Source of the DNA: Nitrosopumilaceae archaeon
GTDB taxonomy: Archaea > Thermoproteota > Nitrososphaeria > Nitrososphaerales > Nitrosopumilaceae
Assembly: GCA_965207375.1 (NCBI GenBank)
Contig: OZ242274.1
Span: 64,001-128,000, forward strand
Reading direction: 5' to 3'
DNA: 64,000 nt
Numbering within the stretch: the first letter of the stretch is position 1; every line of letters begins with the position of its first letter. Both the position numbers and the translations under genes were made by a program. Below are positions 48,178 through 64,000 of the stretch, piece after piece. The notes under the pieces were generated by a model. The model did no database searches and was not told where the DNA came from. It saw only the letters and a list, made by a program, of their open reading frames with translations.

Positions 48178-50085
48178 ATGATATTAAAATTAATTCAAGT
48201 GAAGAATTTTCGTTCCATAAAAGATGAGGTTTTAGTCTGTGACAATCTGACTGCTCTTGTGGGTGTAAACGGTTCGGGAAAGTCTTCTTTTTTGCACGCA
48301 ATTGAGTTATTTCAAAGCAAGTCACCGCGAGTAGATGAAGAAGATTACTATGATAGGAACACTATAGAGGACATCGTAATAGCTATAACATTCAAAGATC
48401 TGTCGGAATCGGCAAAAAACCGGTTTGCAAAATACATACAAAACGATGAACTAACAGTGGAAATGGTCATAACATGGAATGATGGTAACTCAGCCCGAAG
48501 ATTTCATGGTTCGATACTACAGAATCCGGATTTTAGTGAAATTATCCGCGAAGACAAGGCAGAAAATGCAAAGAAAATATACAATGAGTTAAGAAAGAAT
48601 GAAGATTACAAACACTTTCCAAATTGGTCAAGTTTCTTAAAAGCAAAAAAATATCTCGAGGATTGGGAAACCGAAAATTCCAGCAAGTGCGACAAAATAC
48701 GTGATGATGGGCAATTCTTTGGTTTAAATGTACAAAGACATCTTGAAAGATTTGTAAGATTTTTGTACATACCATCAGTACGTGATGCCGCCGATGATGC
48801 ACAAGAAGGAAGAGATTCTGTCCTGACCAAACTGATGAATTTAGTTATAAGAAAAAATCTGGAAGAAGAAGAAGATATTAAAAAATTTCTGGAAGACACC
48901 AAAAAAAGATATGTCAAGATGATGGACACATCAAAGTTGGAGGAACTAGAACACCTAGAAGAAAAGATGACTAAGACTCTTCAGAATTTTGTGCCCGATG
49001 CCAAAATAAATCTAGCATGGCAGTCTCAGGAACCAGGAATTAAATTCCCAGATGCGGTAGCGAATGTGGTAGAAGATGACTATCAAACAACGGTAGCTAG
49101 GACTGGTCATGGACTTCAAAGAGCTTTCATAATGACTATGTTACAGCATCTATCAATTGCACAAGCCGACAGTACAAAAGAGGAAGCATCATCTTCTGAC
49201 GAATCATCTACACTCATACTTGTGATAGAGGAGCCAGAACTTTACCAACACCCTAGCAGACAACGTCATCTTGCAGAGGTATTCCTTTCGTTAGCAAAAG
49301 GGACGATGCAGGGAGTTTCTGGAAACACACAAATTATTTACAGCACACATTCTCCCCATTTTGTTGGCATTGACAGGATAAATCAAATCAGACTATTGCG
49401 AAAAATAAAGACCGATGCTAAAAAACCAAGAACAACCAGGATATTCAGTACTAATCTGAACGAAGTTGCCACCGAATTATCAAAAGTATGGCAACAATCT
49501 GGATTTACTGCCAATACTCTAGCACCACGCCTTCAAAGGATCATGACGCCGTGGATGAATGAAGGGTTTTTTTCAGATGTTGTTGTTTTGGTTGAAGGTG
49601 AGGATGATCGGGCGGCCATTATTGGTACAGCAGAATCACTCGGTTATAAATTTGAAAGTATGGGAATTTCTGTAATTCCATGTTTTGGAAAGACCAATGT
49701 GGATAAACCCGCGATAATATTTAGAAAATTTAACATTCCTGTTTATATCATATGGGATGGAGATAAAGGGAAAAGAGATGCGGTTGCACAAGAAAATCAC
49801 CGTCTTTTGTCATTGATGGACCAAGATAAGGAAGATTGGCCATCGAACATAACCGATACTTTTGCATGTTTTGAAACAAATATGCAAGATTTCATGAAGA
49901 GTGAAATTGGTGAAACTCTGTTTGAACGTTACATGAATGATTGTAACACAGATTTTTACATGAAAAGGGACCAAGCCCTGAAAAACCCAGCCGTTATTTC
50001 TACAATTATAAAAAGAGCAAAACAAGAGGGTCAATCATGCAAAAAGTTTGAGACAATTGTGAAGAAGATAATAGGTTTGAAGTGA
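48178..50085 (+). CDS. OLD-family ATP-dependent nuclease (ABC ATPase + TOPRIM)
   Basis: KNFRSI, Walker A GVNGSGKS, IEEPELYQHP, STHSP, TOPRIM VEGEDD and WDGD. Confidence 0.92.
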   Translation: MILKLIQVKNFRSIKDEVLVCDNLTALVGVNGSGKSSFLHAIELFQSKSPRVDEEDYYDRNTIEDIVIAITFKDLSESAKNRFAKYIQNDELTVEMVITWNDGNSARRFHGSILQNPDFSEIIREDKAENAKKIYNELRKNEDYKHFPNWSSFLKAKKYLEDWETENSSKCDKIRDDGQFFGLNVQRHLERFVRFLYIPSVRDAADDAQEGRDSVLTKLMNLVIRKNLEEEEDIKKFLEDTKKRYVKMMDTSKLEELEHLEEKMTKTLQNFVPDAKINLAWQSQEPGIKFPDAVANVVEDDYQTTVARTGHGLQRAFIMTMLQHLSIAQADSTKEEASSSDESSTLILVIEEPELYQHPSRQRHLAEVFLSLAKGTMQGVSGNTQIIYSTHSPHFVGIDRINQIRLLRKIKTDAKKPRTTRIFSTNLNEVATELSKVWQQSGFTANTLAPRLQRIMTPWMNEGFFSDVVVLVEGEDDRAAIIGTAESLGYKFESMGISVIPCFGKTNVDKPAIIFRKFNIPVYIIWDGDKGKRDAVAQENHRLLSLMDQDKEDWPSNITDTFACFETNMQDFMKSEIGETLFERYMNDCNTDFYMKRDQALKNPAVISTIIKRAKQEGQSCKKFETIVKKIIGLK

Positions 50086-50704: not shown

Positions 50705-52582
50705 TTAATTTAAATTCCAAATCTGGTCAGCGTATTTTGCAAAATTATCTTCTCGCTGTTTGATTATATTTGCAGTCCATTCATCATAATTGCATACTGT
50801 CTGCTGGTTAATTTCAAGCTTAGAACCTACATATCCAATCTGAACTCCATTGCTGTCTTTTTGAAATTTTTTGATAGAAAATGGAAGATTGGAATTATTT
50901 GTGTTCACAACCTTGTGTAATAAGGTAAGATTTCCTAGTCGATTCTTGAATTCATCAATTTTGGACTCTCCATCATATCCTGCAAAAAATGCTTTCATAT
51001 CCCATTTCTCAGAGTTTTGTGGAAGTATGTGTTCTAGGGTAAGATCATCTATAGGTCTTACGTCATCATATTTGGTACCAAGATGTATAGAAATTTGTTG
51101 TAGTATGTATTTTACTGCATCTTTCTTAGGATCCTCCATGAATTTTTTAAAGTTGTAAACAAAATCTTCATGGTCATCATACTTTTTGAGTTTATCAATA
51201 ACTGCCTGATAAGAATCGCCAGAGTTAATCATTCCAACTATTACATCAATTATTTTTTTGATATCGCCAGGGTGTTCCTTCCGTATGACTCTCACTTTAA
51301 AGAAAAACTTGACCAAAAATTGTACTAGCTTAGAATAGTCATTTGGTTTTTGAACATACCACTGACGATATGCTGCAAGTAATGGAACACGTATGAATTT
51401 TGCCTTAAGTATTTTGATTACATGTACATCATCTTTACTGTCTTCGTCAAAGTATTGGGAAGGATCAGATAATCCTGATAGATATTCAGCATCTGTTTCT
51501 AGTTCCTTTATAAAGTCCTCACATGATTTTTCGTCAGTTACAATCTTTTTGATAATCTTATACAGATTCTTCTTTGACATAGAAAGTTTTGGTTCCGAGT
51601 TATCAGATTGATCATATTTGAGACGAAGTGAATTACGTTCTTTATGTCGCGAATAATAAGATTCCATAATAAATTCATCATCTTGTTGATTGTTGCCTAT
51701 AACCTTATCGAAGATATTGTTCCAACGATCACTTTGCTTCTTTTGCATATCTAATGTCTTAATTTTGTTCAAGATGTGGTTTTTAATCAAATTTGATTTG
51801 GATAGTGTTTGTCCCCTTTCATTTAATGTCTCAAATATTTGAAATGCAGTATTATCATCATCAACCATGATCAAAACAACATAATTGTAGTCACATACAA
51901 AATCAATAAAATAGCTCATTAAAGGAATGTTATGCTCCATGTGTTTTGTCTCACGATGTTCATCATAATCTTTAGAAGTTGAATTTGAAGTATTTGGAGC
52001 AAAATCATTAGCAAGACATAACAATAATTTTTCGTGTAATAAATTATAATTTTCAACAAGCAGCTTATTAGATTTTGTTTTAAATTTTTTATTTTTAAAA
52101 CGCACCGCTTGGGATTCTTTATCATGTTCATATTTTTGTATTTCATTGAATAGATCCTTATCAGTATCATTAAGTTCTAATTTCCATCCAAGTTCTTGGC
52201 CCATACTTTTGTTGAGAAGAAGATTATCAATCTTGTTTACGCCCTCAATTTGATTGTACTCATACATTATATCTCGCACAACACAAAACAACATCGTGAG
52301 TGTAGCTAATCTTTGCTGCCCATCTATTACAAGGAATTCCTGTTCTTCTTTACTAGTAACAAGTACCATAGGTCCAAACAGATATTGTGCATCAGGTACA
52401 GGTTCAGCTCGGTTTTTGACAAGATCAAAACTTTCCAAGAGATCGGTCAATAATGCTCCTACTTTTTCTTTGTCCCAATCGTAGTTGCGTTGAAATCTTG
52501 GAACTTTAAGCAGCTGTTTTTGGGACAATAATTGGCCAATAGATACAGCTTTTGTATTTGCAAATTTATTATTAAACGCCAA
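50705..52582 (-). CDS. DUF262 + DUF1524 (HNH) protein, GmrSD / SspE-like
   Basis: VPRFQRNYDW, IDGQQR, FETLNERG; C-terminal TLEHILPQ...LGNLTLL..N. Confidence 0.92.
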   Translation of the reverse strand: MAFNNKFANTKAVSIGQLLSQKQLLKVPRFQRNYDWDKEKVGALLTDLLESFDLVKNRAEPVPDAQYLFGPMVLVTSKEEQEFLVIDGQQRLATLTMLFCVVRDIMYEYNQIEGVNKIDNLLLNKSMGQELGWKLELNDTDKDLFNEIQKYEHDKESQAVRFKNKKFKTKSNKLLVENYNLLHEKLLLCLANDFAPNTSNSTSKDYDEHRETKHMEHNIPLMSYFIDFVCDYNYVVLIMVDDDNTAFQIFETLNERGQTLSKSNLIKNHILNKIKTLDMQKKQSDRWNNIFDKVIGNNQQDDEFIMESYYSRHKERNSLRLKYDQSDNSEPKLSMSKKNLYKIIKKIVTDEKSCEDFIKELETDAEYLSGLSDPSQYFDEDSKDDVHVIKILKAKFIRVPLLAAYRQWYVQKPNDYSKLVQFLVKFFFKVRVIRKEHPGDIKKIIDVIVGMINSGDSYQAVIDKLKKYDDHEDFVYNFKKFMEDPKKDAVKYILQQISIHLGTKYDDVRPIDDLTLEHILPQNSEKWDMKAFFAGYDGESKIDEFKNRLGNLTLLHKVVNTNNSNLPFSIKKFQKDSNGVQIGYVGSKLEINQQTVCNYDEWTANIIKQREDNFAKYADQIWNLN

Positions 52583-52607
52583 TATGTCTAATCCAACTTA
52601 CAGCAAT

Positions 52608-53354
52608 TTATGTTTTAAAATGATCCAGTACATAAGTATAAAACTCTCTGTGTGTTGAAAGCATTTTTTTACTGCCACCTTGCCTTATGTAAAAATCATC
52701 GAGAACACGTTCATGTTTTTCTGTATCATTTGATGAAATTACGAATTTGAGAGGTTTGTTAGCTTTATTCAAATTACGAAAAAACCAAGGTTTGGTACTA
52801 GATTTTATTTTAATTTCTATGATCTGTACCTCTAACACATATACAAACCTAATGTTAACGAGTGAACCAAGTGCAGTATCTGAATCTAGATATTTATCAA
52901 GAGCGTCCATTATTTTTCTTTCCAATTCGTCACATAATGTGTAATTTGATTTGTTCTTATGATCTGTAATATGGCTAAAATCATAATCAAGACCAATCAG
53001 ACGTTCCGTCAAGGTACCCGTATCACCTACTCCTATATACAAATAACCTCCATCAGAGTTCAGAAATGATTGTACTGTCTTTGGTATCACCATGGTGGAC
53101 ATTACTTTTTCTGAAAAATTTGCCTTGTTTTCTGTATATTGATCTTCATACATGATCCTTTCTTCGATTATTTTTTCGGAATTCATGATTTGAATCACAC
53201 GTCCCTTGTCGCCATTATCTAAAAGTACAGTAATTTTGTTACTGGTAGGATCTACAAGTATATGAGATACTCGACCCGTAGAGGTTTTCCTAGGATCTGA
53301 TAATAGTATTATTTCAACATAATCCCCTACATTGACGTTAAGCTTTGAACTCAC
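52608..53354 (-). CDS. YwbE(DUF2196)-like domain fused to a Schlafen/AlbA_2 domain
   Basis: N-terminal VGDYVEI...GRVSHIL...VLLDNGDKGRV; core EDQYTENK, FLNSDGGYLYIGV.D, FYIRQG. Confidence 0.78.
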   Translation of the reverse strand: MSSKLNVNVGDYVEIILLSDPRKTSTGRVSHILVDPTSNKITVLLDNGDKGRVIQIMNSEKIIEERIMYEDQYTENKANFSEKVMSTMVIPKTVQSFLNSDGGYLYIGVGDTGTLTERLIGLDYDFSHITDHKNKSNYTLCDELERKIMDALDKYLDSDTALGSLVNIRFVYVLEVQIIEIKIKSSTKPWFFRNLNKANKPLKFVISSNDTEKHERVLDDFYIRQGGSKKMLSTHREFYTYVLDHFKT

Positions 53355-54118: not shown

Positions 54119-55669
54119 ATGAAGAACTATTCAGAATTAGAATACGCGGAACTCTTCAAAAAATTTTTTGATATTGGTGGACTTCAAGGGCCGCACAAAT
54201 GTATCTTTCTACATGCTCTTACAGACATAGGTCTGATTGATAACAACGATCTGATCGGAAAAGAATGGATTTCACAAGATGGACCCAATGTAATACTAAA
54301 TCTGAATTTTATGGCAGTCAGATTTGCGAAGGCATATCACGGCATATTGAGCTTGAATATTAAACACAGTCCTGCACACAAGAATCAACCCTCGATACTT
54401 GCTACATTTAAAGACTACACGGGGTCTGATTTTCCAACTCTGGCATACCTTGCCTCTGGAAAAATGAAATTTTTTCGAAGCAAAATAATTCGACGCGATA
54501 TAGTACTTGAGGTTTTACCCAATCTCGTAGAGCAAACCAACAAGAAAAAACCACCAGATTTTCCTGGAATGTATGATTGGGCCCGTAGAACCGACACCAT
54601 TGTATTCAAAAGAAGCTTGGTTGATTTTATGAAATCAAAACGGAGCTATCTGAGATATGAATTAGGAAAAAAACTAAAGAATTATTTGGAGGAATTGAAT
54701 CCCGGTAAAGAAATCTCGAGAACTTTTGTGGATACTGACAACCCGTTCTATCAGTATGTGATGGGACAACAAAGAGTGTTTTTGGCAGGTGTTGAGCGTG
54801 AGACGGAAGTGCGACGGTTTGAGCAGTTTATGGAGACTGATGTAAAGATGGAGCATGTGACCTGTGTTGACTCGCCGGTGCGAGTGTGGGGGCTACGATC
54901 TACCCGTGACAACAAAGAGGTGTGGAAAAAAATCAGGTACGGGGATATCATTTTATTCTCAAACAACAATCAATGTTTTGCCAAGGGGAGGGTCCTACAG
55001 ACTATGCAAAATGCTGATGAGGCAGAACGTTTGTGGGGTAAGGATGATAAACCCATCCGTGATCTTTTAATCATGTTCGAGAATGTTGCTGCCATGCAAT
55101 TGAATTTGGTAGACTCTCGTACACGACTAGTCAAACCTACAATGCCTGACGAGTACAACTTTCCAATCATTCAAGTAGATGAAGGGCTTGTGGCTGAGCT
55201 GATTTCTGCTTATCATGACATCGAGACAGCAATGGATAATGTATCCGAGCCAATAGAGGATGATATTCACAATGTGTCCGTTTCATTGATGGAGAGAAAG
55301 ACCAAGGTACGGAGGGGACAGGGTGCATTCAGAGCAGAAGTATTGAAGAACTATGACAAGAGATGCGTCGTATGCGACATAAACGAAAAGGACTTGCTAG
55401 AGGCAAGCCATATACTTCCTGTTAGAAACCTCGAGTCTGCTGGCAATATCAAAAACGGAATATGTCTATGTGTTCTACATCACAAAATGTTTGATCAACG
55501 ATACATGTATTTTGACACCGACTATGCCTTGAAATTTATGAGTAAAACGTCACAATATCTGCAAGATACTTGCACTAAGATGAAAATCACCGAATCAATG
55601 TGCCGTGAAATGCCATCCAAGGAATACCTAGAAAAATCATCCCGTCTCGTTAGGTGCCAAGAATCATGA
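54119..55669 (+). CDS. Multi-domain HNH endonuclease (possible SBD-like + PUA/EVE-like + HNH)
   Basis: C-terminal RRGQGAFR..V...Y..RCVVC...LEASHILP...NGICLCVLHHKMFD; central VWG...W..IRYGDIILF; N-terminal PHK.IFL.AL. Confidence 0.85.
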   Translation: MKNYSELEYAELFKKFFDIGGLQGPHKCIFLHALTDIGLIDNNDLIGKEWISQDGPNVILNLNFMAVRFAKAYHGILSLNIKHSPAHKNQPSILATFKDYTGSDFPTLAYLASGKMKFFRSKIIRRDIVLEVLPNLVEQTNKKKPPDFPGMYDWARRTDTIVFKRSLVDFMKSKRSYLRYELGKKLKNYLEELNPGKEISRTFVDTDNPFYQYVMGQQRVFLAGVERETEVRRFEQFMETDVKMEHVTCVDSPVRVWGLRSTRDNKEVWKKIRYGDIILFSNNNQCFAKGRVLQTMQNADEAERLWGKDDKPIRDLLIMFENVAAMQLNLVDSRTRLVKPTMPDEYNFPIIQVDEGLVAELISAYHDIETAMDNVSEPIEDDIHNVSVSLMERKTKVRRGQGAFRAEVLKNYDKRCVVCDINEKDLLEASHILPVRNLESAGNIKNGICLCVLHHKMFDQRYMYFDTDYALKFMSKTSQYLQDTCTKMKITESMCREMPSKEYLEKSSRLVRCQES

Positions 55670-55691
55670 TATGTAAGGGCAGACACTAGAC

Positions 55692-57806
55692 ATGACACTA
55701 AACATGCCTGACTGGCCAAAATCCAGATATGACTCTAGACTAAACAACATAGCTACGGAATTTTTCATTCGGGCACTGCAAAACTCCACCACCTATAGGC
55801 GACTGGGAGGGTTTTTTTCTTCCACAAGCCTTGCATTGGCCGCACGTGGAATAAAGGAACTGATTAAGAACGAGGGCAAGATGCAGCTCGTGGTCAGTCC
55901 CATACTCACGAAGGAGGATTCATACATGCTAAATGATTGCACGTCAGAGCAACGGGATGACATCATTAACAAATCACTCCTTGAAGAATTTGATCTTGCA
56001 GACGAATTTGAGAAGAATCATGTTGCCGCCCTAGCATACCTGCTGAAAAAAGAGTTCTTGGAGATAAGAATAGACATTCCAAAGGACATTGAAGGCAGAT
56101 GTCTTGACTATGATTCCATGATGCAGAAAAACATGCTTGATGAAAAGCTTGGGATCTTCCAAGATCGAGAGGGTAATGCAATTTCCTTTAGGGGACCAGT
56201 GAATGAAAACAGGCAGAGCTGGGAACATGGTGTGTTCTCTATAACAGTAGATGTGGATTGGATCGACGGACAAAAGTCCCACGTCCTTGACGACATTGAC
56301 CGATTTGAGAAAAAATGGAACGACAATAACATATTGAGACTGCCCCAGAAGACGCACGACAGCATAGTAGCCAATGCACCAAGCGACGTGCAAGAGATCG
56401 ACTTGGACAAGTTCAACGTCCCTCCATGGGCCATGCTGTCAAACGGAAACATACTATGGGATCACCAGATACGAGCAGTCAACTCTTGGACGAATTCAGA
56501 TTATCGCGGAGTATTGAGCATGGCAACCGGCGGAGGCAAGACCCTGTCGGCGCTAGTATCGGCAAGCCTTGTGCCTGTAGATTCATTAGTATTGATACTG
56601 GTTCCGACCAAGGTACTGATAGACCAATGGGAAAAAGAGATACGCCTGTTTGAACCCGACGCAGATCTGATTTTATGTGACAGCACCCATGCCACGTGGA
56701 ATACAATCCTGTCAGGTAAGTTGATTCCATATGTGACAGGAAACCCCAAACGAGACAAACCACTATTCGTTTTATCCACCATGAACACCGCTTCAGGCGA
56801 AAAATTCAGGAGGAGTTTTGAACACATCAAAAAAGAATTTATCACCATGATTTCAGATGAGGTGCACCATCTTGGAGCTCCCGAATATAGCAAGATCTTC
56901 GAGATCAATGCGCAAAGAAGACTCGGGCTTAGCGCAACGTTTACACGGGATTGGGACGAAATTGGAACGCGCAGAATACTGGATTACTTTGGCCATCAGC
57001 TTGACGGGGAGTATACCATCTCAGATGGGATACGTGATCGGAAACTTAGTCGTTATGAATATCATCCCTTTTTGGCATATTTGGATGAATCAGAGTATGA
57101 TGAATATGCAGGATATTCAGTCAGCATAGGAATGCTGTATGCCAGATTGAGTAACACAAAAGATCCAGTCATACGGTTCGAACTTGAGAAAAAATATCAC
57201 AAACTCCTAAGGGACAGGGCCGAGATAATCAAGAAAACCAAAGACAAGCTACGCGCATATTCCGAGATACTCCTAACGTCGCCAAAAAAACCCTACATTG
57301 TATTTGCAGATGACCACGATCAAGTGGCAAAGCTAAAGAAGGTTCACAAGGACACCATACGCCAGATTAATCTACAGAGATCAGATGACTTGGAGAAAGA
57401 TGACATAATGACGTTTTCTGGCAAGTTAAACGATATCGAACGGCTAAAAATACTCAAAGAGTCTAAATCCAACAAAACACCCCTGTTTGCAATGTATTGC
57501 CTAGACGAGGGAGTGGACGTTCCAGAGTTTCAGTCTGCTATACTGGTGTCTAGTTCCACCAGCAAGAGGCAGTACATACAGAGACGCGGGCGGATTCTCC
57601 GGACTGGCAGGCAGAAGGTGGCACATCTGTATGACATAATAGCCCTACCAAACCCCCATTCATATCACGTCGACCCAGACGATGCCAAGACCATAGTAAG
57701 GAAAGAAAAGGATAGAGTGAACGAGCTTGCGCGAGATGCAGTTAACAAATGGGTGGCAATAGGAAAAATAGACGAAAGTCTCCGCGATCTCGGTTTCCTA
57801 TCATAA
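55692..57806 (+). CDS. pbeA: PbeA-like PLD-domain SF2 helicase (phosphorothioation-associated)
   Basis: Y.R..GFFSS, degenerate PLD motif LDEKLGIFQD...FRGPVNE, MATGGGKT, DEVHH, GLSAT, CLDEGVDVP, QYIQRRGRILR. Confidence 0.82.
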   Translation: MTLNMPDWPKSRYDSRLNNIATEFFIRALQNSTTYRRLGGFFSSTSLALAARGIKELIKNEGKMQLVVSPILTKEDSYMLNDCTSEQRDDIINKSLLEEFDLADEFEKNHVAALAYLLKKEFLEIRIDIPKDIEGRCLDYDSMMQKNMLDEKLGIFQDREGNAISFRGPVNENRQSWEHGVFSITVDVDWIDGQKSHVLDDIDRFEKKWNDNNILRLPQKTHDSIVANAPSDVQEIDLDKFNVPPWAMLSNGNILWDHQIRAVNSWTNSDYRGVLSMATGGGKTLSALVSASLVPVDSLVLILVPTKVLIDQWEKEIRLFEPDADLILCDSTHATWNTILSGKLIPYVTGNPKRDKPLFVLSTMNTASGEKFRRSFEHIKKEFITMISDEVHHLGAPEYSKIFEINAQRRLGLSATFTRDWDEIGTRRILDYFGHQLDGEYTISDGIRDRKLSRYEYHPFLAYLDESEYDEYAGYSVSIGMLYARLSNTKDPVIRFELEKKYHKLLRDRAEIIKKTKDKLRAYSEILLTSPKKPYIVFADDHDQVAKLKKVHKDTIRQINLQRSDDLEKDDIMTFSGKLNDIERLKILKESKSNKTPLFAMYCLDEGVDVPEFQSAILVSSSTSKRQYIQRRGRILRTGRQKVAHLYDIIALPNPHSYHVDPDDAKTIVRKEKDRVNELARDAVNKWVAIGKIDESLRDLGFLS

Positions 57807-57840
57807 ACAAGTTTAAAAAAACCACTACCAAGCAGATATT

Positions 57841-58026
57841 ATGCCTGATGCCTATGATGAGATAATAAAGATCCTAACGGACGTGGAAGCCGAAAACAAG
57901 ATTCCCGCTGGAACACTGAAAAGCATCTACGAGACGGAGAAGGCAGTAGTGCATCTAAGGGTGCGGGATAACATACACGACCATCTACAGGGCTTAGTGT
58001 CTGATGCTGCAGGGAAGATGAACTAG
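57841..58026 (+). CDS. pbeB: PbeB-like small protein
   Basis: 61 aa between the helicase and the SMC-like ATPase (1-bp gap); assigned by position. Confidence 0.6.
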   Translation: MPDAYDEIIKILTDVEAENKIPAGTLKSIYETEKAVVHLRVRDNIHDHLQGLVSDAAGKMN

Positions 58027-58027
58027 G

Positions 58028-59974
58028 ATGTTGTTTAGAGGCATAGAGATTTGCAATTTTGGCAGATATGCTGGAACCAATTTTTTTGACACCACTGTGA
58101 CTGACGACAGGAATGTAATACTGGTCAAGGCCAACAACGACCGTGGCAAGACCACACTGTTCCAGGCAATCAAGTTTGCCATGTACGGCGATGAGGGAAT
58201 ACGTCCCAAATCCACAAGTGACTGGATAAATCTCCAAAAGGCTTCAGAGGGGGACGGTGAGATGCACGTGGAAATAAAATTCGATCACGAAGGATACGCG
58301 TACAGGCTAAGACGCCTTGTCAAGTTTAGAAAAACCGAAAGAGGAAAGGAGATTGCAACTGTGGGTAATCCGTCGGTGGAGATCTTTAAGAATGATAACC
58401 CCCATATGACTGGAGACTCCGACTCTAACAAGAGGGACTGGATAGATACGATTCTGCCAAAGGACGCAAGCCAGTTTTTCTTTTTTGATGGTGAAGAGAT
58501 TCAAAAGTACATACATCATGAGGAGTCCCACGTAAAACAGGCCATAGAGAAGGTCCTCGGAATTAAGGAATTGCTCAACGCCAAAGAGGACATGTATGAG
58601 ATTTTTGAACGCTTTCAGACAGAATACGACAGAAACATCCGAAAACATGCAAAGGACGAAAAATCCCGAAACGAACTGGAGAGGATAAAAAACGAATTGA
58701 AAAACGCCGATGAATTCATCGAAGCTCAACAAAGGTTCCAAAACGGTGCAGAGGCAGAAAAAAACAGACTGGACAAGGAACAAAAAAAATATGAGAACAT
58801 AAAAGTAACCGTAGATGCACGCGACACGGCAGAGAGAGAGTTGGAAAATCAGAAAAAACTACTGCACGCCAACAAGAAGGAACTTACTGCGACTAGGGGA
58901 AACACCAGTCTTATTCTGTTATCCCCGCTCCTTGAGATCATCCACAGGACCGAGGAGGATCCGCCATCAGTGGATCGGTGGCAGTCAGAGACAATTAGGT
59001 ACATACTTAGCAACTTTGACCAATGCGTGTGTGACAGGCCGATCGATCAACATGTGCGAGATGTATTCAATACCAAGATTCTGGATATAAAACCATCAAA
59101 AACATCAATTATCAAAAAATCGGTAAACAACATGCTCATCGAGCACGAACCTGCCGCAAAATGGGTACGGCTCCAAGAAAACCTAGAAAAGGCGGCTGAC
59201 ATAATGCAGGAAATCGACAAACAAAAAAGCACAATCAAAGACCTGAACAGGCAGATCCGGAACAATGAAAGCACCCAGGCCATAAAGGAATTACAACAGA
59301 AGTACGAGGAAATCGTTAAAGATATCGGCGTGTCAGAAAAGAAACTCGAACAGTACAAAGCTACAAAATCAAAACTGGAAAATCAGAAAAAAACCATAGA
59401 CGCACGCATAAACGCCAGTGTAGTAGATACTCAGCTGACCTTGGCCACACGAAGAAAAGACACCTGCCAAACAGTGATGGAATGTATACATCAAAGCATA
59501 GAAAAGTTCTACGAGATAAGAAAACCAGATCTTGAAGCGCACATATCGAAGATCTTCTCTTCCCTCACCAACAATCCCGATATGTACAAGGGATTGAAAA
59601 TAGACAGGAACTTTAACATGAGGGTGATAAGAAACGACGGTACGGAGCTTCCCACATTCAAGTACAGCCCCAGCGCTGGTGCATCGCAGATAGTTGCCAC
59701 GTCTATGATTGGAGGACTGAACAAATTTGCCACGCGTGACGCCCCAGTCGTCATAGACACTCCCATGGGACGGCTTGATCCAGAACACAGAAAGAACCTG
59801 ATAAGTTATTACTCCAAAATGAGCAAGCAGATAATTATACTGTATCAGCCAAGTGAATTGGAAGATGAAGACATACAAAACATCAATGACAGCCTTGCGT
59901 CAGAGTGGGAGATAGACTCGCAACCAGATCATCCGGACTTGTCATGCATACACAGAGCGAGGTCACACATATGA
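58028..59974 (+). CDS. pbeC: PbeC-like SMC/Rad50-type ATPase (DndD paralogue)
   Basis: NFGRY, ANNDRGKTT, FFFFDGEEI, coiled coil with CVC hook, SAGASQ, IDTPMGRLD. Confidence 0.8.
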   Translation: MLFRGIEICNFGRYAGTNFFDTTVTDDRNVILVKANNDRGKTTLFQAIKFAMYGDEGIRPKSTSDWINLQKASEGDGEMHVEIKFDHEGYAYRLRRLVKFRKTERGKEIATVGNPSVEIFKNDNPHMTGDSDSNKRDWIDTILPKDASQFFFFDGEEIQKYIHHEESHVKQAIEKVLGIKELLNAKEDMYEIFERFQTEYDRNIRKHAKDEKSRNELERIKNELKNADEFIEAQQRFQNGAEAEKNRLDKEQKKYENIKVTVDARDTAERELENQKKLLHANKKELTATRGNTSLILLSPLLEIIHRTEEDPPSVDRWQSETIRYILSNFDQCVCDRPIDQHVRDVFNTKILDIKPSKTSIIKKSVNNMLIEHEPAAKWVRLQENLEKAADIMQEIDKQKSTIKDLNRQIRNNESTQAIKELQQKYEEIVKDIGVSEKKLEQYKATKSKLENQKKTIDARINASVVDTQLTLATRRKDTCQTVMECIHQSIEKFYEIRKPDLEAHISKIFSSLTNNPDMYKGLKIDRNFNMRVIRNDGTELPTFKYSPSAGASQIVATSMIGGLNKFATRDAPVVIDTPMGRLDPEHRKNLISYYSKMSKQIIILYQPSELEDEDIQNINDSLASEWEIDSQPDHPDLSCIHRARSHI

Positions 59975-60423
59975 GTGGCGACTCACCCGATGAATCTTGG
60001 TGTATCTCGGGCGATCCGTTGGAGATAAAGTCCGCCCTAAAGGAGGTGTATGACGACCTAGTAGAGGGTGAAGGATTATTCCCCAACAACTATTCCCTGT
60101 TCTGTGTTGGCCTAGTGTATGGGGTGTTGTACAAAAAACGACACGAGGTAAGGCCGACGGCCTCATTCATCAAGCTCTTCGCGATAACCGATCCTGTGAG
60201 CAAGGACGTGATCGACTTGATCTACCGCCTTCTCGACGATGGACAGTGTGACAAAAACGAGATCTGGCAGGAGATGCTCTCGATTGCAGACGGTGGAGTC
60301 TTGGCACTAAATGACATATACAAGGCAAACAAGAACTTTACCATCCCACATCTGCTTGAGGAGGCAAGAAAACTGTGGCAATCCAGAACCAAAGATCTTC
60401 ACAACTTGAACCTCCGTGCATGA
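59971..60423 (+). CDS. pbeD: PbeD-like protein
   Basis: ATGA overlap with the pbeC stop; last gene of the operon; assigned by position. Confidence 0.6.
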   Translation: MSGDSPDESWCISGDPLEIKSALKEVYDDLVEGEGLFPNNYSLFCVGLVYGVLYKKRHEVRPTASFIKLFAITDPVSKDVIDLIYRLLDDGQCDKNEIWQEMLSIADGGVLALNDIYKANKNFTIPHLLEEARKLWQSRTKDLHNLNLRA

Positions 60424-60477
60424 TCGCAGACTACTTTTTAGTAGACGGACAGTAGCGCGACCTTGCCTAAACTGGTG

Positions 60478-60547
60478 AAAAATGCGATAAATTTTATGCC
60501 TTAAATTGAAAATTTTATTTCGAATTGATCAATGGTGCATGAGGTCT
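60478..60547 (+). mobile_element. MITE copy 3 (partial, right end)
   Basis: GCCTTAAATTGAAAATTTTATTTCGAATTGATCAATGGTGCATGAGGTCT followed by ACTGTT, as in copy 1. Confidence 0.75.
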
Positions 60548-60629
60548 ACTGTTTCAATCTATATCAAATATAAAATTGCACAATAAACAATTCGAAAATC
60601 AATGTGATTGACTATAGAATTTTTCACTG

Positions 60630-61004
60630 TCATTTTTTGTTGTTTAATTGATAACTAACACAATGTTCATTAAATTTTTTTTCTGTCAGACTAATTACCA
60701 TGTCTTTTAGATCTTCATATTTTTGTCTGGAAATTTCTAATATGAATGAATTTTCTGATGGTGTCGGCATTCGGTTAAATTCTTCTAAAAATCGAGTAAA
60801 AAGTATACCCTCCAAACATCCTAGATAATAATGTAAATATGCCAGTTCATATGAAACCTTGTTATTTTTAATTAAAACTAGACTTTGAGCAATATTTGGA
60901 TAAGACTCCCCTTCAATGGCATTCATCCGTTCAACTGTTTTATCATAAGCGAAATCCAAAAGAATTTCAATTTTCATTTTTGTATCTAAATCAGGCATAA
61001 ACAC
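60630..61004 (-). CDS. Hypothetical helical protein downstream of dndA
   Basis: 124 aa; 4-bp gap after the dndA stop. Confidence 0.7.
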   Translation of the reverse strand: MFMPDLDTKMKIEILLDFAYDKTVERMNAIEGESYPNIAQSLVLIKNNKVSYELAYLHYYLGCLEGILFTRFLEEFNRMPTPSENSFILEISRQKYEDLKDMVISLTEKKFNEHCVSYQLNNKK

Positions 61005-61008
61005 AACC

Positions 61009-62169
61009 TCATGTTACCATACTCATTAGTGATTGTATCACTTTAGATATAGTCTTAATACAGTAATTAACATCTTCTTTACTATTGAATCGCCCTAATC
61101 CGATACGTATTGAAGAATGTACATGCGCCTCATTATATCCAAGAGAAAGTAACACGTATGACGGTTCCACCATCTGAGTAGTACATGCAGAACCAGCAGA
61201 TATGGCAATCTCTTTTGATACTGAATTAATTATTGCCTTGCTCTCCACATCTGGAAAATACATATTAAGATTATGAGCTAGTCGGTTTGTTGGATGACCA
61301 TTTAATTTTCCACCAATCTTTTCAAATTCAGTTAGCATCAAATCTGACCATTCTTTGAATCGTTTATTTTCTGAATCCATCTCTTTTTGTGCAATTTCAG
61401 ATGCCTTGCCAAAACCAACAATTCCCGGAACATTCAAAGTACCAGAGCGGATATTTCTCTCCTGTCCTCCTCCAAACATTATAGAATCAGGCCTTACTCG
61501 TGGTTTTATTCCGCGCACATAAAGGGCACCTACACCCTTGGGACCATACATCTTGTGTGCAGAAAAGGACATCAGATCTATATTCATCTTCTCAACATTA
61601 ATTGGAATATGTCCTACTGCCTGTGCTGCATCTGTATGAAAAATAACATTGTTCTCATGGGCTATCTTTCCGATGGCAGTCACATCTGCAATCGTACCAA
61701 TCTCATTGTTTGCAGTCATTATGCTAATCATTACCGTATCATCAGTAATTGCAGATTCGAGTTCCTCAAGATTGATTTGGCCATACGAATTTACCGGCAA
61801 ATAGGTCACTTTTTTCCCAATAGCCTCCAAATGTCTTGCCGTATCAAGTACTGCCTTGTGTTCTGTTACACAGGTAATCAGATGATTACCTCGATTTTCA
61901 TATTTTTCCATGGTTCCAATTAATGCAATATTGTTTGATTCAGTAGCACCTGATGTGAATATAATCTCATCATGTCTTGCCCCAACTGCATTTGCTATTG
62001 TCTCCCTTGCAGATTCGACTGCCACAGATGCCTCATATCCAAAAGGATGATCCAAGCTTGAGGCATTACCGAATTTTTCTGTAAGGTATGGCATCATGGC
62101 ATCTAATACGCGCCGATCAAGTGGCGTGGTTGCATGATGATCAAGGTATATGACCTTAGAACCAGACAT
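61009..62169 (-). CDS. dndA: Cysteine desulfurase DndA
   Basis: YLDHHATTP, TSGATES, SAHKMYGPKG, SAGSACT; directly after dndE. Confidence 0.9.
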   Translation of the reverse strand: MSGSKVIYLDHHATTPLDRRVLDAMMPYLTEKFGNASSLDHPFGYEASVAVESARETIANAVGARHDEIIFTSGATESNNIALIGTMEKYENRGNHLITCVTEHKAVLDTARHLEAIGKKVTYLPVNSYGQINLEELESAITDDTVMISIMTANNEIGTIADVTAIGKIAHENNVIFHTDAAQAVGHIPINVEKMNIDLMSFSAHKMYGPKGVGALYVRGIKPRVRPDSIMFGGGQERNIRSGTLNVPGIVGFGKASEIAQKEMDSENKRFKEWSDLMLTEFEKIGGKLNGHPTNRLAHNLNMYFPDVESKAIINSVSKEIAISAGSACTTQMVEPSYVLLSLGYNEAHVHSSIRIGLGRFNSKEDVNYCIKTISKVIQSLMSMVT

Positions 62170-62170
62170 A

Positions 62171-62560
62171 TTATACAGTCTCCTTGCCTTTCATGTATGA
62201 TTTCAAAAGATTTCCAAAGTCTCCAATTTCATCTATACGTGGAAAAAGCATTCCGGCACCGCGATTAAGATGTGCACGGATCATTCGGTCTGCATACGTC
62301 TCATAGTCCAACCTATCCTCAGAAAGCCGTTGCTGAAACAATAATGAAAACACAAGCTCGTTTTTCCCATACAGTATGTGTGGGAGCAGCTCCATTCCCT
62401 TTTCATCATACATGTCAGAATTGGGGATACTTGGGTCATTAAGAGACAAACATATTCCAAACCTGGCAAGTACGTTTATTGAAACTCCTGTCTTGTGCTT
62501 GAGCTGTCCCAGATGATTCTGTGATCTTATTGAAAGACGCACCTTATCTAATCTGTGCAA
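62171..62560 (-). CDS. dndE: DNA sulfur modification protein DndE
   Basis: VRLS...L..LK.KTG...NVLARFGICLSL, GMEL, RAHLNRG; TTG start overlaps the dndD end. Confidence 0.9.
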   Translation of the reverse strand: MHRLDKVRLSIRSQNHLGQLKHKTGVSINVLARFGICLSLNDPSIPNSDMYDEKGMELLPHILYGKNELVFSLLFQQRLSEDRLDYETYADRMIRAHLNRGAGMLFPRIDEIGDFGNLLKSYMKGKETV

Positions 62561-64000
62561 GTTCTCCCTCCAGGAAATAGCCGGGCTCAACTGTAGTAAC
62601 AGATTTTCTCTTATCACATGTAATCTTGTATGATCTGGTAACATATTTTGACATCATATCATATTCCTTTGGAGATATTTCTCTGTCAGTTGATAATAGT
62701 ACAATCTGATGTGATGCAAATGGATAAAACTTTTCAACAAGGTTTGTCAGATGTTGACCATCTAGTCTTCCAAGCGGAGTGTCAATTACAAATGGCAATG
62801 ATCTTCCACACATCCTTGCAATTGCCCAAAGCAGTGCAGTACCCACAATCTGTCGTTCCCCCATTGATAAAAAGTCACCAGGAATCTGATCCTCGTTGTT
62901 CTCAAATACCTTAACCTCAAACGTATCTCTGTCTATCTCTATCTTTCGTATTGATTCCTTGTGCAAAAGCATTCTTGCAGTATACAGCAGATTTGATTCA
63001 AGTTCTCTTATCTTTCTCTCTTTGAGAGCAGAATAGTACGTATCTAAGACATCTTGCATCTTAGATGCAAGCTGCATGCCTGTGGATGCCGTCTTGTTGT
63101 TGTATATCGAGGTCAGCATTGCTTTTAGCTTTCCCTGTAGTATTTTCCTGTATGATGACTTTGATGATATCTGTTGATCCAAGTGTGTTAGTTCTCCCTT
63201 GAGAATTCCCATCTCTTGGTGCATTTCATTGATTTCAGTTATGCGTGGTCCAAGCTCATCGTCTTTTGGAATCCTTGCAATATCTGATTCAACAGTTTCA
63301 GCCCTTTCCTGTATTTTTACAAGATTGGTAGATATCTGAACCATATCATCAGAACCTGCATCAATTCTTTTAATCATTTCAGAAAAATATTGTACATCAG
63401 CAGGTGACAGATCAAAGTGAACCTTATCTTTTCCTGAATTGCCAAGTTCCCTAAATGCCTCAAGCATCCGTTTGGTTGCAGCTGCTGCATTAACACCTGA
63501 TGGCCAAAACTGCGAGTCAGACATCATTTTTTCTAGTCCCTGTACAAACCCTGCATTCATGTTTGCCATCATACCATACATGGTCTTTGAATCGTTTTGG
63601 ATCTTGTCATGTATTTTGTGTAACATCGATGAAACTAGATAGAATGGAGCATCTCCGGATAATTCTTCCTGGAGCTGTTTTGTCTGTACACGTACCTTTT
63701 CTTCTAAAACTGCCTTTTGTGTCAGTAGATCGCCTCGCATGTCTGCATAACCTCCCCCGATTCCAGATATTGCAGATTCCTTTAGTGCTATCTTTTTTAC
63801 CATCTCATCAATCATAGATGTAATCTTTTCTCGTTCCTGATTCAGTTCTTTTACCTCATGTATTAGTTGGTTTTTTTCTTCTGTCAGTTTTTCATAATCT
63901 TTGAGTAATGTGTTGTTTTTGTTACCACTTTTTCTTAATACGTACAAATTCAAATCTGCACGTAATCTGTGCACTAGTTCGGCCCCTATCAACGTCTCAA
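62544..64000 (-). CDS. dndD: DNA sulfur modification protein DndD (5' part outside the window)
   Basis: Coiled coil; LSMGERQ, LLWAIAR, PFVIDTPLGRLD..H, FYPFASHQIVLLSTD.EI. Confidence 0.93.
   Translation of the reverse strand, partial: ETLIGAELVHRLRADLNLYVLRKSGNKNNTLLKDYEKLTEEKNQLIHEVKELNQEREKITSMIDEMVKKIALKESAISGIGGGYADMRGDLLTQKAVLEEKVRVQTKQLQEELSGDAPFYLVSSMLHKIHDKIQNDSKTMYGMMANMNAGFVQGLEKMMSDSQFWPSGVNAAAATKRMLEAFRELGNSGKDKVHFDLSPADVQYFSEMIKRIDAGSDDMVQISTNLVKIQERAETVESDIARIPKDDELGPRITEINEMHQEMGILKGELTHLDQQISSKSSYRKILQGKLKAMLTSIYNNKTASTGMQLASKMQDVLDTYYSALKERKIRELESNLLYTARMLLHKESIRKIEIDRDTFEVKVFENNEDQIPGDFLSMGERQIVGTALLWAIARMCGRSLPFVIDTPLGRLDGQHLTNLVEKFYPFASHQIVLLSTDREISPKEYDMMSKYVTRSYKITCDKRKSVTTVEPGYFLEGELAQIR

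Follow-up and report, generated by a model that had tools for sequence, protein, structure and literature searches.

The window analysed in the present study is a 64,000-nucleotide stretch of a Nitrosopumilaceae genome (G000:C1:64001-128000; gene positions below are window coordinates), the far end of which carries Dnd and Pbe genes, with an additional gene for an HNH protein of 516 amino acids (aa) at the head of the effector operon. This gene is a single open reading frame (ORF) on the + strand (54119-55669) and is followed on the same strand by pbeA (55692-57806; 704 aa, a degenerate HKD domain joined to a superfamily 2 (SF2) helicase) after a gap of 22 bp, pbeB (57841-58026; 61 aa) after 34 bp, pbeC (58028-59974; 648 aa, a CxC-type ABC ATPase) after 1 bp, and pbeD (ATG at 59971, end at 60423; 150 aa, DndE-like) with an overlap of 4 bp. 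On the - strand, and converging on these genes, lie the 3' part of dndD (62544-64000), which runs past the window end, dndE (62171-62644), the cysteine desulfurase gene dndA (61009-62169), and a small ORF trailing dndA, orf124 (60630-61004). The order, strands, gaps, and overlap of these genes, which the original prediction had read from the DNA, were confirmed by the ORF coordinates.

Every Pbe and Dnd gene was named by PADLOC profiles, with Pfam and NCBIfam in concordance, and the identities first proposed all held in this check. PbeA matched its PADLOC profile at 2e-164 along with the Pfam families ResIII (1.2e-21), DEAD, and Helicase_C (1.4e-9), and TIGR04095 matched it at 5.1e-89, which is below the cut-off of that profile. 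PADLOC values for PbeB, PbeC, and PbeD were 4e-5, 4.6e-103, and 5.6e-18, respectively, and those for DndA, DndE, and the in-window part of DndD were 1.2e-161 (with Aminotran_5 at 1e-83), 4.5e-32 (with Pfam DndE at 3.4e-18), and 1.5e-100, respectively. PbeC carries C-V-C at residues 333-335 of its 648 (the CxC Zn-hook) and a GKT Walker A motif, and orthologues of pbeB are present at the related locus L079 (63% identical, in the equivalent position) and also at L024 and L026. The 19 kb past the window (L002) contains the rest of dndD, the full gene of which encodes 662 aa, followed by dndC (472 aa, 8.4e-188) and dndB (341 aa, 8.7e-131), both intact. Thus dndC, which was to be looked for beyond position 64000, lies directly outside the window and is neither absent nor pseudogenised. 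Against their profiles, dndA, dndB, dndC, dndD, and dndE are all full-length, they contain no stops and form one cluster, and the modification operon dndB-C-D-E-A is complete.

The AF2 model of the 516-aa protein, which was built on 28 homologues, comprises three domains (mean pLDDT 83.8), all of them encoded on the + strand. The first is a winged-helix domain (aa 1-205; 54119-54733) that, in predicted structure, resembles sulfur-binding domains (SBDs) and is called the N-domain below; the second is a PUA-like reader domain of the EVE/YTH-like kind, recognised by Foldseek (about aa 215-372; 54761-55234); and the third is an HNH nuclease domain (aa 395-516; 55301-55669), in which Pfam HNH_2 matched aa 416-466 at 5.3e-11. 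A Foldseek search with the whole model returned the EVE-HNH enzyme VcaM4I (6yex, 1.1e-8) and the N-domain of McrB from Thermococcus gammatolerans (6p0f, 1.1e-4), which is YTH-like and reads 5-methylcytosine, with the EVE proteins PH1033 and MJECL36 and YTH domains among the lower matches; Pfam EVE did not match the 516-aa protein. When PDB was searched with sequence profiles, the HNH part alone was matched (VcaM4I at 1e-8, TagI at 1e-3), and NCBIfam PT-DNA_restrict (NF045808) likewise covered only aa 376-473, the HNH part, at 7.1e-13 and with 48.3 bits, below its cut-off of 180. Residues W257, W269, and W306 of the PUA-like domain and C416, C419, H431, N446, H454, and H455 of the HNH domain are invariant in the 28 homologues, and the catalytic residues of the HNH are invariant across both clades of PUA-HNH proteins, the three-domain clade and the short clade described below. 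As judged from these alignments, the HNH domain has its catalytic residues intact and is presumably an active nuclease. Full-length homologues of the 516-aa protein numbered 36 among 5.8 billion clustered proteins, nearly all of them metagenomic, with one named as from a Cenarchaeum sponge symbiont; a phylum-level search gave matches in only five of 401 genomes, and a scan of genome contigs with the 516-aa family gave nine loci with one partial and no full-length relative.

In PbeA, the helicase motifs are intact, and GGGKT and DEVH are readable in the sequence. The HKD motif at D150-N173 (56139-56210, + strand), as located in an alignment of 29 PbeA from the family and six from plasmids, is degenerate: it reads L-D-E-K-L-G-I-F...F-R-G-P-V-N-E-N where relatives have H-x-K...G-S-x-N-E, with Asp in place of His and GP in place of GS, and Pfam PLDc did not match PbeA at E <= 0.01. 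The His of the HKD motif is the nucleophile in PLD-superfamily nucleases. The alignment with relatives confirmed that PbeA has lost this residue, as had been suspected from the window alone, and the HKD site, lacking its catalytic His, is predicted to be dead.

The main finding of the present study is that the loss of this His coincides with the presence of an upstream gene encoding a PUA-like domain and an HNH domain (a PUA-HNH gene). A PbeA search of 401 Nitrosopumilaceae genomes matched 71 genomes with about 29 full-length loci, and approximately 20 kb was fetched around 28 places (27 full-length, one with a broken pbeA) and annotated by BLAST and hidden Markov model searches; L105, in which pbeA is broken and the PUA-HNH gene present, and L025, a contig of 1.5 kb, were omitted from the counts. 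The 29 intact PbeA aligned from this family comprised 13 with H-x-K...G-S-x-N-E and 16 without the His. A PUA-HNH gene stands directly upstream, on the same strand, of all 16 His-less pbeA (16/16) and of none of the 13 that are His-bearing (0/13). Two of these 16 upstream genes are of the three-domain type (the window and L079) and 14 are short (281-350 aa); Pfam confirmed the HNH in 13 short proteins, while the short gene of L091 is cut by the contig end and that of L106 was found by a PUA-HNH profile search. The spacing between the PUA-HNH gene and pbeA ranges from an overlap of 14 bp to a gap of 22 bp, and overlaps of 4 bp are common. Three of the 13 His-bearing pbeA have another gene with an N-domain upstream, which lacks an HNH in L022 and L083 and is joined to HNH_4 in L100.

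Loci beyond the family genomes follow the same pattern. Of the 25 loci obtained in a scan of metagenome contigs, three were useful. On two of these, L024 and L026, a short PUA-HNH gene precedes a pbeA whose product lacks the His and shares 45-47% identity with that of the window; pbeB, pbeC, and pbeD come after pbeA and converge on dndA. All six plasmid PbeA, from two haloarchaea, a cyanobacterium, two alphaproteobacteria, and a Lactiplantibacillus, keep H-x-K...GS.N, and none has a PUA or HNH gene upstream. When family, metagenome, and plasmid loci are combined, a PUA-HNH gene is upstream of 18/18 His-less versus 0/19 His-bearing pbeA. The proposed co-occurrence of PLD-His loss with an upstream HNH gene is therefore complete in this sample, and the linkage of HNH homologues to pbe in other genomes holds at every His-less locus, both in the family (16/16) and on metagenome contigs (2/2).

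The reverse test, in which a profile of 13 short proteins was searched against the 401 genomes, gave 39 matches. All 15 full-length short PUA-HNH matches adjoin a pbeA match and none is free-standing; two further matches are the three-domain genes, and the other 22 are partial, covering the HNH or PUA part in other proteins. Both three-domain genes of known context adjoin pbeA. In a large protein database, the short family gave 73 matches at 1e-10, with Nitrosopumilaceae as the sole organism name. On these comparative grounds, we regard the loci as a clade-specific five-gene form of Pbe, in which a PbeA with a dead HKD site is paired with a putative HNH subunit that carries a base-reader domain. 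A second Pbe operon in the genome of the window (L088; G000:C1:1505895-1519990) encodes a short PUA-HNH protein of 290 aa, a PbeA of 700 aa that also lacks the His, and PbeC; two N-domain HNH genes lie divergently upstream of it, and a second dndB and dndC come after it. At L105 (G437:C2:1380600-1400500), which belongs to a congeneric genome, pbeA lies in two pieces beside an intact PUA-HNH gene, with a TGA and a gap of approximately 870 bp between the matches.

Regarding the history of this pair of genes, the distance matrices of PUA-HNH and PbeA proteins from 17 loci are correlated at r = 0.96, a value that none of 2000 Mantel permutations reached, and the correlation inside the short clade of 13 members is r = 0.93. 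These values indicate, at the sequence level, that PUA-HNH and PbeA have been inherited together with no exchange of partners; the loci differ in their flanking genes and in how dnd is oriented. A maximum-likelihood tree of the 29 PbeA implied two changes of the His state, with the clade of the window joining the long-branch sequence L098. Constraining all His-less rows together cost 6 log-likelihood units and was not rejected (approximately unbiased (AU) test, p = 0.27), and in a tree without L098, the His-less rows formed one side of a branch with a support of 80. Two independent losses of the His, as suggested by the first tree, were not upheld by these results.

The N-domain raises the question of whether the protein senses phosphorothioate (PT) modifications. 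Modelled alone, aa 1-205 gave a pLDDT of 86 and a pTM of 0.84. A VIA-align search of this model against 48,161 chains, in which Z scores of 6-7 are graded as middling by the tool, placed the SBDs of Hga (8h0l, Z 7.1) and SprMcrA (7ccd, Z 6.9) at the top, with the ScoMcrA entries 5zmo/5zmn/5zmm at Z 6.1-6.2 and Cdc6/ORC winged helices interleaved among them at Z 6.8-6.2; SBDs from three different proteins make up five of the seven top matches. Foldseek with the N-domain alone gave no match at E <= 0.001, no relevant sequence match was found in Pfam (E <= 10) or NCBIfam (E <= 1), and the nearest named cluster in the ESM atlas was PF26340, the ScoMcrA SBD family, a weak lead at 0.80. Based on the predicted structure, the N-domain is probably, but not certainly, an SBD-like winged helix. 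Among 391 family genomes, a profile of the N-domain matched 71, with up to eight scored matches per genome and six in G000, and dndC was found in 62; both were present in 42, the domain only in 29 (including two unpublished genomes that form part of the 391), dndC only in 20, and neither in 300, which corresponds to an odds ratio of 21.7, uncorrected for phylogeny. Among the 30 best N-domain loci, inspected with flanks of 1.5 kb, five adjoin dndB and three adjoin pbeA.

A paralogue of the N-domain stands at the head of the dnd operon in a second HNH gene, which is located upstream of dndB and encodes 319 aa (L002:5173-6132 = G000:C1:131173-132132, - strand). The SBD-like N-domain that this protein has in common with the 516-aa protein is followed by a Cas9/IscB-like HNH, of another kind than that of the 516-aa protein. 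Genes with this N-domain (38-67% identical) were observed upstream of dndB in G036, G642, G686, G444, and G459, with the matches in the last three covering only the N-terminal approximately 200 residues, and also far from dnd in several other genomes. Adjoining the 319-aa gene are two ORFs (L002:6228-8347, - strand), one of 397 aa with weak metallopeptidase (Matrixin-like) matches and one of 303 aa without a family match.

At the other end of the modification operon, orf124, which had been proposed as an extra gene trailing dndA, matched no family in Pfam, PADLOC, or NCBIfam. It has 27 homologues at 48-64% identity and, by this conservation, is taken to be a real, conserved small gene; none of the other Dnd/Pbe loci fetched contains a homologue. 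The gene itself thus stands, whereas its membership of the system is unsupported, and we rejected it as a component because no linkage to dnd was found in the other loci fetched. Upstream of the effector operon, a Schlafen/AlbA_2 gene (248 aa) and then a GmrSD-type enzyme (625 aa; PADLOC HEC-06, 4.7e-81) occupy 50705-53354 on the - strand; L084 contains this pair twice, next to Dnd/Pbe genes, and in L024 and L026 a Schlafen-like gene stands immediately before the PUA-HNH gene. An OLD-family nuclease (48178-50085, + strand; AAA_15 with an OLD-like TOPRIM; PADLOC Old, 3e-61) is located at the island's edge. The OLD nuclease, the GmrSD enzyme, and the Schlafen/AlbA_2 gene upstream place the locus within a defence island. 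The G+C content is 0.32-0.33 at 50-54 kb, 0.42-0.45 across the HNH-pbe operon, and approximately 0.39 elsewhere, and these steps hint at separate acquisitions. The host was originally described as an ammonia-oxidising archaeon, a label that is justified because its genome encodes archaeal AmoA. This genome has a size of 4.3 Mb in four contigs (completeness 99.95, contamination 0.06), and the other genomes listed for the family range from 0.8 to 3.9 Mb.

We consider it likely that a complete dndBCDEA operon here converges on a five-gene variant of PbeABCD, in which a separate HNH subunit has taken over the nuclease function of PbeA. A five-gene Pbe effector with an HNH protein that possibly supplies the nuclease lost from PbeA was the core of the original prediction, and the comparative co-occurrence lends support to it. 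In that case, the HNH protein would work within the Pbe machinery as one of its subunits, for which the dead HKD domain may be the docking site; DNA would be found or looped by PbeC and PbeD, PbeA would translocate along it, and the HNH domain would nick or cut DNA that does not carry the PT mark of the host. The N-domain may read PT and either keep the nuclease off host DNA or position it there, and the pocket of the PUA-like domain may read a flipped, possibly modified, base. Nuclease activity, binding, PT modification, and defence at this locus are what we infer from the genes.

A number of points weigh against this reading. The His-less clade possibly goes back to one origin, and the correlation may for this reason reflect one event kept since then; neighbouring genes with a shared inheritance would, moreover, be expected to co-diversify in any case, and the His-bearing PbeA of L100 also has an HNH gene upstream, namely that with an N-domain and HNH_4. 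The assignment of the N-domain to the SBDs stands at middling Z scores of 6-7, with the winged helices of Cdc6 level with them and no sequence-level match, no dndC was detected with the query used in 29 of the 71 genomes that have the N-domain, and the remaining loci among the 30 best show no dnd gene within 1.5 kb. Furthermore, the nearest solved relatives of the HNH protein by structure and sequence, VcaM4I, TagI, and ScoMcrA, are autonomous enzymes, and the 516-aa protein may likewise be an autonomous type IV modification-dependent enzyme (EVE-HNH or SBD-HNH) that attacks modified phage DNA and merely travels with pbe in the island. The GmrSD, OLD, and Schlafen/AlbA_2 genes of that island and the frequent occurrence of genes joining the N-domain to an HNH far from dnd or pbe are consistent with such an enzyme. 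However, given how deeply PbeA has diverged (26-31% identity), one would expect the gene of an autonomous enzyme to have been lost or reshuffled, whereas PUA-HNH genes co-occur with His loss without exception (18/18 versus 0/19), adjoin pbeA in all 15 full-length cases with none free in the 401 genomes, and overlap pbeA by 4 bp in many loci, and we therefore consider an autonomous enzyme to be unlikely. The HNH may also belong to the operon without replacing the HKD site, if Pbe needs no cleavage, as reported for Haloterrigena jeotgali, and the HNH serves as a back-up or suicide effector or as a regulator sensing modified DNA. In the parts of the founding study available, viral DNA was not degraded and pbeBCD was partly active without pbeA (Xiong et al., 2019; PMC6459918), and suicide effectors have been proposed in such neighbourhoods (Rakesh et al., 2024; PMC10853773). 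Nevertheless, the catalytic residues of the HNH are invariant in both clades, and since the HNH gene is found precisely where the HKD His has been lost, compensation is the simplest interpretation; we consider an HNH that does not replace the HKD nuclease to be quite improbable.

With respect to the N-domain, the chances are close to even that it is a generic winged-helix DNA-binding domain and no PT sensor, with the resemblance to SBDs reflecting only a shared fold. The Cdc6/ORC winged helices amid the SBDs, the lack of a match in the Foldseek, Pfam, and NCBIfam searches given above, and the domain-bearing genomes without dndC all fit a generic domain, but SBDs from three different proteins fill five of the seven top places among 48,161 chains, and the co-occurrence with dndC (odds ratio 21.7) and the position next to dndB or pbeA in eight of the 30 best loci also weigh against it. 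The fusion of the N-domain to HNH nucleases also speaks for an SBD, since 94% of SBDs, which are widespread in bacteria, were joined to an HNH according to the portion available of a 2023 survey (PMC10602919). Returning to the five-gene Pbe with a separate nuclease subunit, a further and rather tentative proposal is that the N-domain represents a strongly diverged and so far unrecognised family of PT-sensing SBDs in archaea, occurring in about a fifth of the family genomes sampled and fused to several kinds of HNH, through which the Pbe of this operon may read both the sulfur of the backbone and a flipped base, with the HNH as the cutting subunit that replaces the HKD site. If this is the case, Pbe systems would therefore need DNA cutting, contrary to the first report.

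Published accounts of the antiviral mechanism of Pbe differ: no DNA cleavage was seen in the founding study (PMC6459918), whereas a later reappraisal argued that the HKD nuclease of PbeA must cut (PMC10853773). That a natural lineage has dropped the HKD His and always carries an HNH nuclease alongside suggests, as far as sequence comparisons can indicate, that Pbe needs a nuclease. The division into two proteins would make the translocase and the nuclease separable at the bench. If the N-domain binds PT, SBDs would extend to a divergent archaeal family and would be found inside a host that writes PT rather than one that attacks it. The hosts are marine ammonia oxidisers, the virus defences of which have been little studied.

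In the available text of Xiong et al. (2019; PMC6459918), the Pbe module is defined by four genes, as the original prediction had stated for Haloterrigena jeotgali, with a PLD domain in PbeA, and an HNH is unmentioned there. Rakesh et al. (2024; PMC10853773) treated Pbe as a CxC ABC-ATPase system, the vast majority of members having an HKD-SF2 protein, and listed HNH among the nucleases of such neighbourhoods, and described winged helix-turn-helix (wHTH; SBD)+SRA+HNH genes downstream of dnd. The main text of that article contains neither PUA, YTH, Thaumarchaeota, nor any word beginning with Nitrososphaer, has 'EVE' only inside words such as 'even' and 'event', and mentions ASCH once, fused to a restriction endonuclease in an ORC/Cdc6 neighbourhood; a PUA/EVE/YTH-HNH gene at the head of a CxC/Pbe operon and an HKD-dead PbeA are unmentioned in this text, and the neighbourhoods of its Supplementary Data S1 may list them. 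EVE-HNH fusions were listed with no Dnd context in the accessible part of Bell et al. (2020; PMC7641849), and Dnd genes were noted earlier in sponge-associated and free-living Thaumarchaeota in that of another article (PMC7848895). Searches of the literature by full text, represented mostly by the openings of abstracts, yielded no description of an HNH-headed Pbe operon, in agreement with the earlier statement that none was known. Within that literature, the present system is an undescribed variant of the known Pbe system.

The closest known system is DndCDEA-PbeABCD of H. jeotgali, which similarly has a PbeA with an HKD-like domain and an SF2 helicase, a small PbeB, a PbeC with a mid-length C-V-C, and a DndE-like PbeD, with pbe adjacent to the dnd modification operon. 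In contrast to that system, PbeA here has no catalytic His in its HKD motif, dndB is also present, and a fifth gene, encoding a PUA-like reader and an HNH together with an SBD-like winged helix, heads the operon. The 516-aa protein has the same order of parts as the type IV enzymes ScoMcrA and SprMcrA (SBD-SRA-HNH and SBD-HNH), namely a winged helix that is probably SBD-like in fold, a reader of flipped bases, and an HNH_2-type nuclease, and the best NCBIfam match of its HNH is the PT-DNA restriction family. It differs in that the reader is EVE/YTH-like and not SRA, the N-domain has no sequence match to SBDs, the whole-protein score is 48 bits against a cut-off of 180, and, while ScoMcrA attacks foreign PT-DNA, the gene here forms part of a pbe operon whose neighbour is a PT-writing system. 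The EVE-HNH family of VcaM4I and TspA15I has a PUA-like domain followed by an HNH and provides the best match by Foldseek (1.1e-8) and by HNH sequence (1e-8); unlike these enzymes, which act alone on DNA with 5-methylcytosine or 5-hydroxymethylcytosine, the gene described here is always in an operon with pbeA, and its product has no Pfam EVE match. The wHTH+SAD(SRA)+HNH genes, in the account given in the main text of Rakesh et al. (2024), also combine a reader and an HNH with dnd genes and were proposed as an alternative restriction component; they are located downstream of the modification genes and have an SRA reader, whereas in the present locus a PUA-like reader heads the Pbe operon.

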